Source: Nitrospirota bacterium
Lineage (GTDB): Bacteria > Nitrospirota > UBA9217
Direction of reading: 5' to 3'
Length of the DNA stretch: 64,000 nt
NCBI GenBank assembly: GCA_963840455.1
Contig: CAWIYV010000011.1
Span: 860,580 to 924,579, forward strand
The notes under the pieces were generated by a model. It was given only the letters and a program-made list of their open reading frames with translations, had not been told where the DNA came from and did not search any database. Numbering within the stretch: position 1 is the stretch's first letter; every line of letters starts with the position of its first letter. This document shows positions 733-20,421 of this stretch, piece after piece. The position numbers were made by a program, and so were the translations under genes.

Positions 733-895
733 CAGGTCTCTTTTGTTGCATTTCCCTCTTCCCCGCACCTTCGGACGCGGTCCCCTTCCCCTGCGAACCT
801 CTCGCGGTCGGGTCGATACTGTCTCCCTTTATTGATCCATCTACCCCGCACCCCGTTTCACTCCTTCAGTATGCCTCATCAACCAAAGCAGCCGC

Positions 896-1168
896 TCATT
901 TGAATGCGACGGCCGGATGGAGCTGGGCTGTTTCGAAGGTGATCAGTCCCGCCTGGACGAGCGGGTCCTGGTTCACGACCTTGTCGGCTTCCTCCCTCGT
1001 CTCCGCCCTGACGACGATCATACCGCCATGGTCGCCCCACTTGCCGGCCTGCACGAGGACGCCCGCTGCGAGCTGCTGCCTGGCCCATTCCCGGTGCAAG
1101 GGGATCGCCTTGCTGATCTGCGCCCGGTCCGCGTTGGATTTGAACTTGTTGATCGACATGAAGTACAT
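896..1168 (-). CDS. YCII-related protein (copy 1)
   Basis: 90 aa, H-R-E-W...LVQAG...GGMIVV...EEA...DP pattern; RBS gaggga; near-identical paralog at 4048-4320. Confidence 0.85.
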   Translation of the reverse strand: MYFMSINKFKSNADRAQISKAIPLHREWARQQLAAGVLVQAGKWGDHGGMIVVRAETREEADKVVNQDPLVQAGLITFETAQLHPAVAFK

Positions 1169-1248
1169 GCTTGTATCCCTCTTGGGACCCCTCAGGATCA
1201 GGTCTCTTTTGTTGCATTTCCTTCTTGCCGGGAGCCCGCGAGGGTCAC

Positions 1249-1293
1249 GATACTTCCGACACGGTGACAGGGAGACGCGGAGACACGGGGATA
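1249..1293. repeat. GACAC/GACGC-G(G/T)A short tandem repeat tract, left of HEPN/MNT module
   Basis: gatacttccgacacggtgacagggagacgcggagacacgggga; related longer tract at 2200-2270. Confidence 0.6.
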
Positions 1294-1413
1294 AGCAGAA
1301 GTCGTCCGAATCTCAGAGAACCCGTTACGCCGCCGCCTTGCGCGCTCTGTACTTCAGGGTCATGGGGCACGGGCCAGCGGTTCGATCCAGTTCTGCTGCG
1401 ACCGGCAGCCTGG

Positions 1414-1803
1414 TCAACGGGCGCCGATCTTCTTTTCGACAAATGCCCGCAGCGCCCGCACCATGTCCAGAGCGGCCGTGCGGTCAAGTTTCGTCTCCAC
1501 GGAAATGTCTTCATAGCGCAACAGCGTGCCGTAGGGTGTCAGCAGGTCGAGGTCGGCGAGGGAGGACGGCAAGGGGTGTCCGGCATCCGTTAAAAGGTCC
1601 ATCAACAGCCGTAGATTGTGCGTGCGGGGAAAGTGAACGCTGAATTCAGAGAGCAGCGCCTTGAGGAGCTTTTCCGAGGCCTGCTGGGCATGGAATCCGA
1701 ATATCTCATTGCTGATCCGCTCCCGGTCGACCACTTCGGCGAGAAGCGCCTCGTCCTCGACGGCCTTGCGGACGAACAGGAGCGCCTGTTCATGCTGCCT
1801 CAT
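1414..1803 (-). CDS. HEPN-domain protein (MNT-HEPN TA pair)
   Basis: FHAQQASEKLLKA, RTHNL and LRY motifs; overlaps the upstream nucleotidyltransferase stop. Confidence 0.9.
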   Translation of the reverse strand: MRQHEQALLFVRKAVEDEALLAEVVDRERISNEIFGFHAQQASEKLLKALLSEFSVHFPRTHNLRLLMDLLTDAGHPLPSSLADLDLLTPYGTLLRYEDISVETKLDRTAALDMVRALRAFVEKKIGAR

Positions 1804-2107
1804 ACAGCACCTTGCCTTCGCGGAGAGCGTCAAAATACACGTTGCCGGGCGTGGTAGCCCAATACTCGAACGTAGCCTGGCTTACCACGAGGAGGTCGAC
1901 GGAGATGCGGAGCGGGCTCAGAACGCGGTTCAGGCGTGCCATTTCAGCAACGCGGTCCTTGACATCGGCCTCCACGATCAGCAGATCGACGTCGCTGTCC
2001 TCGCGCGGCTCGCCCCTGCCGTAGGAACCGAACAGAATGATCTTGCGCGGACGGGCCGCGTCCGAGAGGATCCTCGCTGCCTCCGCGATCTTTTCCTGTG
2101 CGACCAT
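1790..2107 (-). CDS. Minimal nucleotidyltransferase (MNT)
   Basis: ILFGSYGRG...DSDVDLLIV motif; start MVAQEK chosen after RBS aggagg. Confidence 0.9.
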   Translation of the reverse strand: MVAQEKIAEAARILSDAARPRKIILFGSYGRGEPREDSDVDLLIVEADVKDRVAEMARLNRVLSPLRISVDLLVVSQATFEYWATTPGNVYFDALREGKVLYEAA

Positions 2108-2199
2108 GCTCTCACGGCCTCCTGACCGGTACACCTTTTTGTAGCATAACGGGACGCCAAATACAAGGCGAAACCGGCAGCCACTGCGATCTAAAATCA

Positions 2200-18061: not shown

Positions 18062-18064
18062 GTG

Positions 18065-18310
18065 CTAGACGCCTTCCCGGGCGATCTTCCGGGCAACCGC
18101 CTTTTTGGCGTATTCCCGCTCGCTCCCGGTCCCCAGCTTCCTTCCCTTTGCGATCCCGCCGAGGTTCAGCAGGGACTTCCGCTCTTTTCGCCTGAGAATG
18201 AGCACATTATCCTTCACCTCGAACTGCAGGCTGTCCCCTTCCTTGATGTGGAACCGGTCACGGACGGGCTTGGGGATCGTGACCTGGCCTTTCTTCGTTA
18301 CGGTCGACAT
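18065..18310 (-). CDS. AbrB/MazE/SpoVT antitoxin
   Basis: STVTKKGQVTIPKPVRD. Confidence 0.92.
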   Translation of the reverse strand: MSTVTKKGQVTIPKPVRDRFHIKEGDSLQFEVKDNVLILRRKERKSLLNLGGIAKGRKLGTGSEREYAKKAVARKIAREGV

Positions 18311-18613
18311 ATTCCTACCTCCAAATGAGTATTACCTATAGTGTAGGTATTACCGGCGCGAAAGTCAACGCCAAACAGCGGGGACAGGGATCAGGGGAGT
18401 ATACGTTGGGATCGTTGTTTTCTGCGTTGAAGTGCCAATACTGCTAAAGAATCCCTGCGAACGGGATCAGCGTTCATCATCAGAACCTGAGGGTCAGGTC
18501 GATAGAAACCCGCTCACAGGCTGGTACGCATACAGGCACACAAGCCAACGGCCCCCCCGGAGTCAGGTCCTTACTGTTAGCATTCCCTTCCATTATTGAT
18601 TATGTCGAGTGCG

Positions 18614-18958
18614 CTACCGCCGGAACAATACAATGAACGAAACGCCTAGTGCGATACAGGACACAATGATCGCTCCAATACAAAGCGCAGCTATCCGCCT
18701 GAACCTCGATTCAGCGAGTGACGCCCCCTGCTCAAGAGCAGCGACGGTCTTTTGCAGCTGCTCGGCCAGCGCTTTGATGTGCACCGCGTTCTGCGAAGCA
18801 GCAGACTGAAGCTCGGCGATCTGTTGCTGCAGGAGTTGTGCTTGCGCTGCAGCAGCCTCATCGCTTTTTCGCGTAGTAAAGACCGGCATCGCCGCTGCAA
18901 CGATCGTGCTTACGTAAGGCAAGATCGCTTTTACTGCGGGAACGAACCACGCTGCCAT
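18614..18958 (-). CDS. Hypothetical coiled-coil membrane protein
   Basis: RBS ggagga; Q/A-rich helix and C-terminal TM. Confidence 0.7.
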   Translation of the reverse strand: MAAWFVPAVKAILPYVSTIVAAAMPVFTTRKSDEAAAAQAQLLQQQIAELQSAASQNAVHIKALAEQLQKTVAALEQGASLAESRFRRIAALCIGAIIVSCIALGVSFIVLFRR

Positions 18959-19061
18959 TGATCCTCCCTAAGAACGTGAGGCGGACACCCTGAGGGGCCC
19001 GCTTGGGATCAGGATGAACTATTGAGCTCTTCTTCCTGTGTCCCTCGAAGGTTCCGATGAC

Positions 19062-20099
19062 CTATGGCGTGAACAGCCATGCAGCTTTGCATTGAGGACA
19101 CCGTACATTCAATTGCCCGCGGTTGGTCGGGACGTTCAGCTTCTGTGAGCAGCTCTGGCAAGTGATGATGGTTGTTGTCTTCAATTCTCCGGCATCGTTC
19201 AGCTCAGGCTGATAGAGCCGCCGCATGCCGCACTCAGGGCAGGTTACGGTTATCACCCCCTGGTCGATCGGCACCTTCAGCTGCTTGTTGCATTCTAAAC
19301 AAACGATGATCGTCGTATGCTCCGAAGGAACGGCCTCTGAAGCCCCGGGGGATTCAATGCTCTGCACTTCCTGCACTTCCTCGGGCAGCTCCTCTCTGGC
19401 AGTCTCTTCCAACGATGTTTGCTCCGGTTCCAGCGCTTGTAACGGTTCTGGAACCTGTACCGGCTCCGGAGCCTGTATTGGTTCTGGAGCTTTTACCGAC
19501 TCTGGGGCCTGTGCCGGTTTCGGAGCCTGTACCGGTTCTGGCGCTTGTACCGGTTCTGGAGCCTGTGCCGGTTTCGGAGCCTGTACCGGTTCTGGAACTT
19601 TTACCAGCTCGTGTGCTTTCTTCAGGTCAGATACAGCAACCCTCTCATAGGATGCAACGCTGATGGTCTGGCGAGCACCTGCGGGGATGGTCTTTGCCTT
19701 TGGTCCCAGTTCAGGCATCTTGCCGGTCCGGATGAACGCATCGCCGAACGCGGCCTGCAGCAGTTCTGACGTCCGCTTGCTGCTGTACAGGATAATGCCT
19801 TTCCCGGCTGCGAAATCGTACGCTTCCGGTGAGCAATCGGTCGTGGTGATCAGATATCCTTGCGTGCAACGGAGCCGGATCATTGCTCCATAGAATTGCT
19901 GAAGAACCGGCCGGCCGATGAACGCCCCGTGGTATTTCTTGCAGAGAATGCCGATCCGCGCGCCGTTCTTGCCGAGCAGTACACCGTCAGCGCCGGCGGC
20001 ACTGCTCTGTTCCACCGCGTAACCCTGCCGCGCAAACGCCGCGAGCGTCAGCCGCAGGAAATCTGCGTGGGAAATTGAATCGAAGATAGTTGTTGCCAT
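19062..20099 (-). CDS. Mrr_cat-like restriction endonuclease domain + Pro-rich repeats + two zinc ribbons
   Basis: F..QGY.V...GADG...CKKY...IGRP.LQQFYGAM...G..ITT...SPEA; ~10 APEPVQ-type repeats; 4 CxxC. Confidence 0.8.
   Translation of the reverse strand: MATTIFDSISHADFLRLTLAAFARQGYAVEQSSAAGADGVLLGKNGARIGILCKKYHGAFIGRPVLQQFYGAMIRLRCTQGYLITTTDCSPEAYDFAAGKGIILYSSKRTSELLQAAFGDAFIRTGKMPELGPKAKTIPAGARQTISVASYERVAVSDLKKAHELVKVPEPVQAPKPAQAPEPVQAPEPVQAPKPAQAPESVKAPEPIQAPEPVQVPEPLQALEPEQTSLEETAREELPEEVQEVQSIESPGASEAVPSEHTTIIVCLECNKQLKVPIDQGVITVTCPECGMRRLYQPELNDAGELKTTTIITCQSCSQKLNVPTNRGQLNVRCPQCKAAWLFTP
19419..19598 (-). repeat. 18-bp coding tandem repeat (~10 units)
   Basis: VPEPVQ APKPAQ APEPVQ APEPVQ APKPAQ APESVK APEPIQ APEPVQ VPEPLQ ALEPEQ. 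Confidence 0.85.
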
Positions 20100-20421
20100 C
20101 GCTGTGAACCCTGGAGGCAGGACCGCTTGGGGTCCGACTGAGATATGGAGATTCTCTATGCCCGCTGGGCCCCGCTCCGGAGGAGCGAGGATTGCGCGGG
20201 CACGGCACGTTCGCGGGCTCTGTCTTCGAGGCCTTGGACCATAACAGCTGTGCGATGAAGAACCGCTCGTAACAGGGCCCTTGATATGGTTTGAGGATAG
20301 TACAAAGAACTGAGAATTGCAAGAGGTTGCGGCTGTACGTGATACTGCACGGCCCTTCAAGGCAGCCACTTACTTTTGTCCGTTGCGGTTTTCCGGGAGA
20401 TTGTGTAAGATTGCCGTAACC

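Follow-up and report, generated by a model that had tools for sequence, protein, structure and literature searches.

TIRtrons are mobile elements in which a Y1/HUH transposase gene similar to those of the REP-associated tyrosine transposases (RAYTs) lies within long terminal inverted repeats (TIRs), not within palindromic repetitive extragenic palindromic (REP) sequences. In the available portions of the published accounts, their transposases (TIRYTs) are longer than RAYTs and, as members of subclass 2.1, carry helix-turn-helix (HTH) C-termini (PMC6006769), one TIR overlaps the 3′ end of the gene, and TIRs having the motif GGGGWSAS flank the gene and also occur away from it as single, dimeric or clustered copies (PMC3733652). 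These elements have been described, but their biology beyond their own repeats is not known. Here we analyse a stretch of 64,000 nucleotides (the window) from a Nitrospirota bacterium (assembly GCA_963840455.1, contig CAWIYV010000011.1, here C11, positions 860580–924579), in which copies of a short repeated site separate small, unrelated genes. The site is very probably a TIRtron TIR, and the reading that we favour, and consider on balance probable, is that solo, decaying copies of this TIR punctuate a variable toxin–antitoxin and defence island of ~74 kb, with gene modules turned over at the copies by TIRYTs.

The locus, taken together with the intact elements of relatives, shares with TIRtrons the features just listed, apart from the motif GGGGWSAS, to which its sites conform in part, and differs in that the copies in this genome (G000) are mostly solo, co-oriented and placed one per gene module within a 74-kb variable island, in that module turnover between species maps to them, and in that the genome has lost the transposase. 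We found no description of gene-delimiting TIR arrays in the literature searched, the figures and supplementary TIR lists of PMC3733652 lying outside that search. REP, BIME and REPIN repeats with their RAYT (TnpA-REP) genes are similar in that a domesticated or IS-like Y1 gene stands between inverted copies of a short repeat found dispersed through the genome as well, and REP repeats are favoured IS110-family targets in the part of the report available (PMC1525189); the site studied here differs from them in having no palindrome or hairpin, in being present in tens and not hundreds of copies, in being clustered, and in belonging to a transposon that is itself multi-copy in relatives. Sedentary integrons and clusters of attC sites lacking an integrase (CALINs) share the arrangement of co-oriented, small, unrelated and often toxin–antitoxin genes with one site per module and with empty site pairs, a module content that differs between close relatives, and IS110/IS1111-type elements inserted in sites, whereas our array has no IntI, attI, attC structure or R″/R′ cores and its site is a Y1 transposon end. 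IS200/IS605 elements and their non-autonomous derivatives also use a Y1 HUH enzyme. IS608 cuts and rejoins single strands, and two like-oriented ends on one strand define its mobile segment; by analogy, similar single-strand chemistry would be expected of TIRYTs, although the ends of IS200/IS605 elements are subterminal hairpins without inverted repeats and those of TIRtrons are true inverted repeats without hairpins. Finally, the pdif modules of Acinetobacter are small accessory or toxin–antitoxin modules bounded by a short recombination-type site, but pdif sites are XerC/XerD sites of alternating orientation, whereas those studied here are co-oriented and part of a Y1 transposon.

A co-oriented repeated site in a variable island

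The window lies at the end of C11 (925 kb) in an assembly of 4.03 Mb and 14 contigs, and the comparison set comprised 31 genomes, with G001–G005 belonging to the same genus and the relatives being mostly fragmented assemblies. At window positions 733–18600, about 27 unrelated small minus-strand genes and one OmpA gene are separated by 22 sites on a single strand, which bears out the array described in an initial annotation of the sequence. Genes were called with a home-made codon-usage caller, and the ORFs at 18614–18958 and 19062–20369 (Mrr-like), both on the minus strand, were added by hand. In the interval 733–18310, 25 of the 26 called genes are on the minus strand, OmpA being the only plus-strand gene, and 20 of 30 ORFs scanned have Pfam matches, to families as unrelated as YCII (twice), HEPN/nucleotidyltransferase, RelB-like, M23-like, two PIN/MazE-type pairs, fatty-acid hydroxylase, hemerythrin, PilZ, short-chain dehydrogenase (SDR), TfoX_N, AI-2E transporter and Mrr. 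In this part of the window one TIR follows almost every gene or gene pair, and the four toxin–antitoxin-like pairs are never divided by a site.

The abundance of the site was measured in several ways. First, its core, GGGTCAGGTCT, allowing for one mismatch, has 10 matches in the window against 1.11 expected, a number reached by none of 100 shuffles; nine lie at 1195–18491, all on the plus strand, and the tenth, at 33155, is within a gene. Second, a profile made from an alignment (A1) of 20 window sites detects 22 copies in window 1–22000, 22 of 22 on the plus strand, a count that is partly circular because 20 of these sites built the profile. Third, a model built from seven transposon ends of other genomes, and so from relatives only, has 19 matches in G000 at E<10: six in window 1–20400 (all plus), six in C11:806.7–860.6 kb and seven elsewhere, the best in the window having E values of 7.6e-8 (at 1184) and 5.5e-7 (at 3870). 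Fourth, 28 of the 48 genome matches at E<5 fall in one 68-kb stretch, C11:811–879 kb, representing ~1.7% of the genome, with smaller clusters on C4, C10, C14 and C7, so that the site, with its tens of copies, is clustered and not spread genome-wide through extragenic space as an ordinary REP would be. When the covariance model of the site (R1) was used on the 31 genomes, matches at E≤1 numbered 41 in G000, 7–59 in G001–G005 (53 in G004, 59 in G005), 1–58 in other genera of the family (58 in G010, 24 in G012, 19 in G011) and 0–9 in the 12 genomes from other families; within this bacterial family such sites are common, and beyond it they are rare.

The array occupies one end of a larger variable region. 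Its right border is a conserved ABC-transporter permease gene (20317–21357, plus strand; PF00528, 141.8 bits) that is present in 27 of 31 genomes. In G001 and G002 the orthologues of C11:802.5–806.7 kb lie only ~4–4.5 kb from this permease gene, compared with 74 kb in G000, and therefore ~74 kb of G000 (C11:806.7–880.9 kb) is variable DNA. Sites run leftwards from the window as far as C11:806.9 kb, mostly on the opposite strand.

Relationship of the site to TIRtron ends

Intact transposons with the site at both ends are present in related genomes. In G010, G016 and G005, inverted pairs of sites ~907–912 bp apart flank a single ORF, and the element that they bound is ~945 bp long, with several copies at 96–98% identity in G010. 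The ORF encodes a protein of 289 aa that matches Y1_Tnp (PF01797, 51.9 bits) and the NCBIfam REP-associated tyrosine transposase model NF047646 (92.1 bits, cut-off 80), has an HTH_28 domain at its C-terminus (residues 256–284), and shows the HUH triad (HYH) and a candidate catalytic tyrosine. The stop codon of the transposase gene lies inside one of the terminal repeats, which overlaps the 3′ end of the gene, and this is why the inner part of the site resembles coding sequence.

The G000 sites align with these TIRs of ~35 bp, sharing 11 invariant columns, and the site at 3881 is the same as the G016 TIR over ~26 nt. G000 also has two other variants of the site, which correspond to the TIRs of more distantly related TIRYT genes of ~330 aa. 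The window copies have the polarity of the TIR that, in intact elements, overlaps the transposase gene at its 3′ end. Of the 22 window sites, one has the published motif GGGGWSAS exactly and 13 have it with at most one mismatch; it is exact, as GGGGTCAG, in the TIRs of distant TIRYT genes at loci L046, L047 and L049, and the G010 TIR reads AGGGTCAA. Because inverted pairs flank a Y1 gene, the window sites align with them, and the relatives-only model recovers the window sites, we hold with high confidence that the site is the terminal repeat of a TIRYT element, that is, of a RAYT-like Y1/HUH transposase with a C-terminal HTH, belonging to the published TIRtron class. The initial annotation had proposed a new kind of recombination site peculiar to this system; instead, it belongs with the TIRtron/TIRYT repeats as far as these are set out in the accounts available (PMC3733652, PMC6006769).

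Some further features of these ends are worth recording. Three paralogous TIRYT-like genes of ~330 aa lie within 6 kb at L046 (G005:C13:27800–34800), at least one of them flanked by inverted GGGGTCAGACTTGAC-type repeats. Tandem 8-bp units, GGGGACAC and GGGGACGC, which fit GGGGWSAS, adjoin sites at window 1258–1300 and 2201–2279; between two and seven tandem copies of the outermost 9–10 nt of the TIR stand beside intact elements (flanks in L024, L026, L027 and L029) and the same is seen beside a G005 site, with short tandem repeats also at L033:1460–1500 and L031:1520–1590. The tandem repeats resemble traces left by repeated cutting and rejoining of the TIR at its outer edge.

Comparison with integrons and Xer sites

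The co-oriented small genes, the toxin–antitoxin pairs and the single site per module fit the architecture of a sedentary integron or CALIN whose sites would be unusual attC sites recombined by an integron integrase, and the genome once had an integron, since its best match to TIGR02249 is a broken intI gene at C7:~124.4–126.4 kb (135.6 bits against a cut-off of 265, N-terminal half only). The site, however, is not an attC, as the initial annotation had held. No hairpin is supported: 47.5% of cells are paired, a value matched by 446 of 500 shuffles, and the folds of 20 sites have z-scores of −2.0 to +1.5, with those of four TIRtron ends (from G010, G005 and G016) at −0.74 to +0.99. A crude scan of our own for R″/R′ cores in an imperfect palindrome of 50–140 nt (RYYYAAC...GTTRRRY) has nine matches in the genome and none in C11:806–881 kb, and the classical attC sites that G000 does have, at C7:123740 (GCCTAAC...GTTGGAC) and C11:741887, are recovered by the scan and are unlike the studied site. 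Moreover, Phage_integrase (PF00589) has no match on C11, no tyrosine recombinase lies at C11:800–881 kb, and the site is itself a Y1 transposon end. The array falls outside the integrons in all the defining features tested, and an integron origin is highly improbable.

The integron remnant itself, at C7:121600–126400 (L001 = C7:123648–127064), is a decayed classical one in which intI is split, with its C-terminal motif surviving, by an inserted ORF, which we take to be GxxExxY-like, and a copy of a 118-bp repeat; classical attC-type sites and small reverse-strand ORFs lie alongside. A lone, near-perfect attC-like palindrome of 57 nt is present at C11:741887–741943, 65 kb to the left of the island.

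Two intact Xer-like tyrosine recombinases are encoded in G000 (C1:189 kb and C9:176.7 kb), and host XerC/XerD could be imagined to move pdif-like modules bounded by dif-like sites. Yet the sites are co-oriented (22/22 on the plus strand) and do not alternate, their consensus contains no two-arm palindrome around a 6–8 nt spacer, and they correspond to a Y1-transposon end, which together leave this explanation with a negligible probability. The view of the initial annotation that no dif consensus is evident is upheld, judged by the orientation of the sites and the structure of their consensus and not by alignment to a dif motif. A part in gene expression is also unsupported, there being seven promoter-like sites against 7.3 expected and 12 terminator-like sites against 17.7 expected (window 700–20400), and Rfam has no match at E≤0.1 in window 1–22000.

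Module turnover between genomes

Among 18 DNA matches of at least 250 bp between window 1–20400 and the relatives, none runs from a module through a site into the next module. A contig of a relative carries two shared modules in three instances, and in all three the intervening DNA differs. The clearest example is on G003:C544, where the modules of a 280-aa ORF (10005–10847, minus strand; 89% nucleotide match) and a PilZ-domain gene (13452–14147, minus; PF07238, 63.8 bits; 91% nucleotide match) follow one another directly, ~40 bp apart; in G000 they are separated by 2.5 kb with five ORFs and with sites at both edges, namely a tandem pair at the left (cores 10825 and 10862; 10813–10894, plus) and the site with core 13305, with a weaker one at 13359, at the right (13293–13400, plus). 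The stretch lacking from G003 (11043–13272, minus strand) includes ORFs at 11043–11294, 11331–12146 and 12985–13272, a hemerythrin gene (12286–12705, minus; PF01814, 41.7 bits) and a site at 12982, and the block common to the two genomes has its left limit at the site with core 9965 (9953–9997, plus). Likewise, G003:C510 has another gene where G000 has HEPN/nucleotidyltransferase, and G003:C542 has other DNA between the VapBC and Mrr modules.

Within the window, a YCII unit is duplicated (733–1032 and 3885–4184, 95% identical) and spans from site to site, as the initial annotation had described, and its report of empty site–site junctions is likewise borne out: they are at 2936/3043, at 4344 with a second core ~10 nt on, at 10825/10862 and at 18491/18560. 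Metagenome contigs from four runs, which contain at most 0.27 of the sampled words of window 700–10600 in any run and in which uncovered parts of the window carry no meaning, provide one re-joined junction: contigs of runs X2 and X5, from two studies, join position 4343 to 3043 with 11 other letters between. Both positions are site cores, and the joint links the YCII module to the site before the M23-like module; modules in a different order, a tandem copy or a circle could each account for it. Of the other metagenome joints, most were disregarded because they fall within the 118-bp and ~500-bp repeat families.

Gene order is thus not conserved between relatives and the breakpoints of gain and loss coincide with sites, and for both reasons the cassette capture and shuffling system envisaged in the initial annotation survives the comparison in part: the breakpoints at sites stand, enzyme-driven shuffling is something that we infer, and the offsets between modules and sites vary. 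We have moderate confidence that the co-oriented solo copies are the places where modules are exchanged.

A separate ~470-bp unit, consisting of a small membrane protein gene and a conserved upstream region, has five copies in G000 at 81–97% identity (C7:16029–16498, C7:3665–4134, C4:1559–2027, C11:770677–771114 and C11:243226–243694), and a sixth version lies between VapBC and Mrr in G003. It was considered as a mobile cassette and dropped, the homology among the five G000 copies ending short of the neighbouring sites.

Transposases and IS110 elements

The initial annotation had looked for the enzyme beyond the left edge of the window, as a Y1-HUH/RAYT-like transposase or a tyrosine recombinase, or in the IS110 element. 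A Y1-HUH/RAYT-like gene is indeed flanked by inverted sites in relatives, but G000 has no intact one: no intact TIRYT or RAYT was found in the 14 contigs of the assembly, the gaps of which could hide repeated elements. Fragments of TIRYT genes with stop codons are present at C7:13.8 kb, C14:8.0 and 236.7 kb, and C9:438.6 kb, none passing the NF047646 cut-off, and with only broken genes no activity can be claimed for this genome. Decayed TIRtrons retaining both ends lie on C7 (13704/14178) and C9 (437776/438742). Close homologues that are intact (>70% identity and no stop codons) are found in G002, G003, G004, G005, G010, G011, G014, G016 and G017. A location beyond the left edge is also contradicted for the other enzyme classes, as no resolvase was found in the G000 genome, C11 has no rve match, and the stretch C11:800–881 kb is without a tyrosine recombinase, as noted above.

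The left edge of the window (1–732, minus strand) is the right part of an IS110-family insertion sequence (IS) of ~1525 bp (C11:859787–861311; PF01548 DEDD_Tnp_IS110, 70.1 bits), inserted in a site with its left half at C11:~859772–859786 and its right half at window 733–762 (plus; matched by the relatives-only model at 733). Position 733, which the initial annotation gave as the start of the array, is accordingly the right end of this IS, and sites continue beyond it. Each of the three IS110 copies examined, two in G000 and one in G003, interrupts a site between GGGTCA and (CA)GGTCT, always at one position and with one relative orientation, which is how elements of this family sit in a repeated target. 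The second G000 copy (C11:~837.6–838.7 kb) is internally deleted and has the same relative orientation as the copy at the left edge; in G003 the site that corresponds to window 17625 has the related IS at this same point.

This regularity could suggest that the IS110-family recombinase, with its non-coding RNA, recombines the sites and shuffles the modules, and elements of the IS110 type are RNA-guided recombinases, frequently directed at extragenic repeats, as the available parts of two reports indicate (PMC1525189, PMC11208160). G000, however, has just two copies, of which one carries an internal deletion, and the arrays of relatives have many sites without an IS110 nearby. The known IS110 reaction, moreover, joins the donor site of the element itself to a target and not two targets together. 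Shuffling by IS110 is therefore very unlikely; as judged from the insertion points, IS110 uses the site only as an insertion target. A variant of the site, GGGGTCAGGCCTGAAAAGATGAAATGTT, was considered as an IS110 end and rejected, the sequence following it being different in every copy, and it is a variant of the site.

Origin of the array

In the explanation that we favour, TIRYTs from intact elements, which are in sister species and not in this assembly, would have seeded solo TIR copies, and the same TIRYTs would have cut and rejoined one DNA strand at these copies, which would allow DNA bounded by a pair of co-oriented copies to drop out, to be duplicated or inserted, or to change its place in the order. 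The enzyme would since have gone from G000, leaving the array as a fossil that IS110 elements exploit as an insertion target.

There is an alternative in which the solo TIRs are passive, either as REP-like selfish repeats or as decayed TIRtron leftovers, accumulating where insertions are tolerated, as in a defence and toxin–antitoxin island, with turnover arising through ordinary horizontal acquisition, homologous or illegitimate recombination at short repeats and IS activity, and in which the transposase never moves genes. We regard this as a real but distinctly less likely possibility. Several observations speak for it and weigh against turnover driven by TIRYTs. First, the sites are strongly degenerate (mean column identity 55%), have no supported hairpin, and no enzyme is present to act on them. 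Second, junction offsets differ between genomes: the YCII module abuts the site directly in G000 and has 25–30 extra nt in G003, and in G005 no site lies within ~100 nt upstream of YCII and the downstream one is at another distance. Third, the VapBC module is found in other contexts in G004, G005 and G001 with no detectable sites at its ends, and so appears to move without them. Fourth, at six annotated loci (four in G010, which has an intact, multi-copy transposase, and one each in G004 and G002) the sites are mostly element ends and not cassette arrays, the decayed TIRtrons on C7 and C9 show that such remnants exist in G000, and the region is also dense in IS elements and other repeat families. 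Fifth, the polarity of sites relative to genes is opposite in the two halves of the G000 island: the left half (C11:811–848 kb) has eight minus and two plus sites among genes that are also mostly on the minus strand, and in the window half 18 of 18 sites in the genome-wide scan (E<5) are plus and the genes minus.

Other observations speak against passive TIRs. Decay of a two-ended element should leave copies in both orientations, yet all 22 window sites point one way, and runs of sites of one polarity recur in G005:C11, G003:C510 and G004:C14. Functional units are respected, the four toxin–antitoxin-like pairs being free of internal sites, and the metagenome junction is re-joined at two site cores. 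That a Y1 enzyme catalyses the exchange as a true cassette mechanism is rather doubtful, and the repeats may instead do no more than mark and favour breakpoints. The fullest version, in which the co-oriented solo TIRs would be the recombination sites of a system like an integron but chemically unrelated to it, a TIRYT acting in trans on one strand to excise single-strand circles of a gene with its downstream TIR and reinsert them at other TIRs, so building and reshuffling toxin–antitoxin and defence islands in the genus, must be considered unlikely.

The distinction has consequences in both directions. If the transposase moves modules, single-strand Y1 transposases would provide a second route to cassette arrays, independent of integron integrases, and would help to build defence and toxin–antitoxin islands. 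If the repeats are passive, arrays that look like integrons can rest on repeats that are not attC, which matters for programs that call integrons or CALINs from architecture only; the TIR would still be a marker for variable islands in this bacterial family, and the insertions would show clearly that IS110 elements can home to a transposon end.

Modules of the array

The modules are described from left to right; sites are on the plus strand and genes on the minus strand unless stated otherwise, and bit scores are those of Pfam matches. The first copy of the YCII-domain gene (896–1168; PF03795, 39.1 bits), the unit of which is duplicated at 3885–4350, is followed by the solo TIR-like site with core 1195 (1183–1227), the best match of the relatives-only model, which aligns to TIRtron ends. 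The HEPN and nucleotidyltransferase genes (1414–2257; PF05168, 55.9 bits; PF01909, 41.3 bits) form a toxin–antitoxin-like pair with a 90% nucleotide match in another context in G005, and the site with core 2284 (2272–2316; core and profile), likewise TIR-like and solo, comes after the 8-bp tandem repeats at 2201–2279. A short ORF with no Pfam match and a RelB-like antitoxin gene (2340–2847; PF18506, 34.5 bits) have a 97% nucleotide match on G003:C510, and precede the empty pair with cores 2936 and 3043 (2924–3075; profile), the latter being one side of the metagenome joint. A lipoprotein gene with a weak M23-peptidase match (3130–3903; PF01551, 24.9 bits, below the cut-off) overlaps with its first codons the best-preserved solo site (3869–3913), which has an exact core at 3881. 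The second YCII copy (4048–4320) is followed by the empty pair formed by the site at 4344, with its second core, and a weak site at 4431 (4332–4463), 4343 being the other side of the metagenome joint.

A degenerate site with core 4876 (4864–4908; profile) lies among gene remnants at 4600–5040, where the interval 4807–5034 has no Pfam match. Next come a PIN toxin gene with a MazE/AbrB-type antitoxin gene (5084–5712; PF01850, 67.1 bits; PF04014, 31 bits), sites with cores 5807 and 6025 (5795–6057; core/profile), and a fatty-acid hydroxylase family gene (6140–6940; PF04116, 92.7 bits). Metagenome contigs of runs X2, X5 and X7 end at 6937, and at the following site, with core 6961 (6949–6993; profile), contigs of X1 and X7 start at 6951 and 6949. 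The OmpA-family gene (7150–8055, plus strand; PF00691, 72.3 bits) is separated by a gap from a called 153-aa ORF with a signal-peptide-like start and no family (9465–9926), which precedes the site at 9965 and the 280-aa ORF, also of no family. To the right of the PilZ gene are the site with core 14177 (14165–14209; profile), a short-chain dehydrogenase gene (14222–14977; PF13561, 192.3 bits), and a group (15179–16086) of a 93-aa ORF, the start of which overlaps the site at 15434, a TfoX_N gene (PF04993, 48.9 bits) and an 81-aa ORF. An AI-2E family transporter gene (16242–17345; PF01594, 178.2 bits) is followed by sites with cores 17438 and 17625 (17426–17657), the second being the one with an IS110 element in its G003 counterpart.

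The VapBC-like pair of PIN toxin and MazE-type antitoxin genes (17654–18310; PF01850, 49.6 bits; PF04014, 47.7 bits) has nucleotide matches of 88–95% in four congeners, three of which have it in a different chromosomal context. The empty pair with cores 18491 and 18560 (18479–18592; core/profile) contains the last sites of the array, and beyond it are a 114-aa ORF (18614–18958), which in G003 is on another contig, upstream of the 280-aa module, and a gene for an Mrr-type restriction endonuclease with zinc ribbons (19062–20369; PF04471, 62.7 bits; 84% nucleotide match in G003), the last variable gene before the core genome. The Mrr-like gene contains nine 18-bp tandem repeats in frame (19424–19646), and a 158-bp stretch at its 3′ end (19039–19196) is duplicated at 89% identity beside the TfoX module (16033–16190), where the 81-aa ORF overlaps the copy (16033–16086).

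Polarity switches and other repeats

Replication direction was considered as the cause of site polarity and dropped, because the GC skew keeps one sign across C11:600–924 kb, and so across both halves of the island, while the polarity flips. Between the halves, at the flip, is a 14-gene minus-strand operon of ~12 kb with atypical codon usage (C11:847600–859700; L009:7614–19674) encoding DpdB-like, SNF2/DpdE-like helicase, metallo-beta-lactamase-fold, radical-SAM-like, HNH and DUF429 proteins; it is a Dpd-like DNA-modification or defence island. At C4:106000–127000 (L011 and L012) a run of minus sites is followed by a plus run with an AriA/AriB (PARIS-like) pair at the switch, and at G005:C11:18000–32000 (L031) a minus run precedes a plus run with a weak rve-type transposase at the switch, so that the pattern is seen in all three clusters having both polarities (C11, C4 and G005:C11).

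Two further repeat families share the region. A repeat of ~118 bp with an internal hairpin is present at window 10907–11024, 12686–12848 and 17526–17579, and also at 4453–4574, 8181–8295 and 9309–9423; it has dozens of copies at 90–99% identity in G000 and congeners, its summed depth in metagenome contigs from wetland and freshwater is very high, and it is a separate miniature element unrelated to the studied site. The second family, with members of 200–500 bp at window 7600–9450 and many copies elsewhere in G000 and in G003, occupies the gap between OmpA and the next module.

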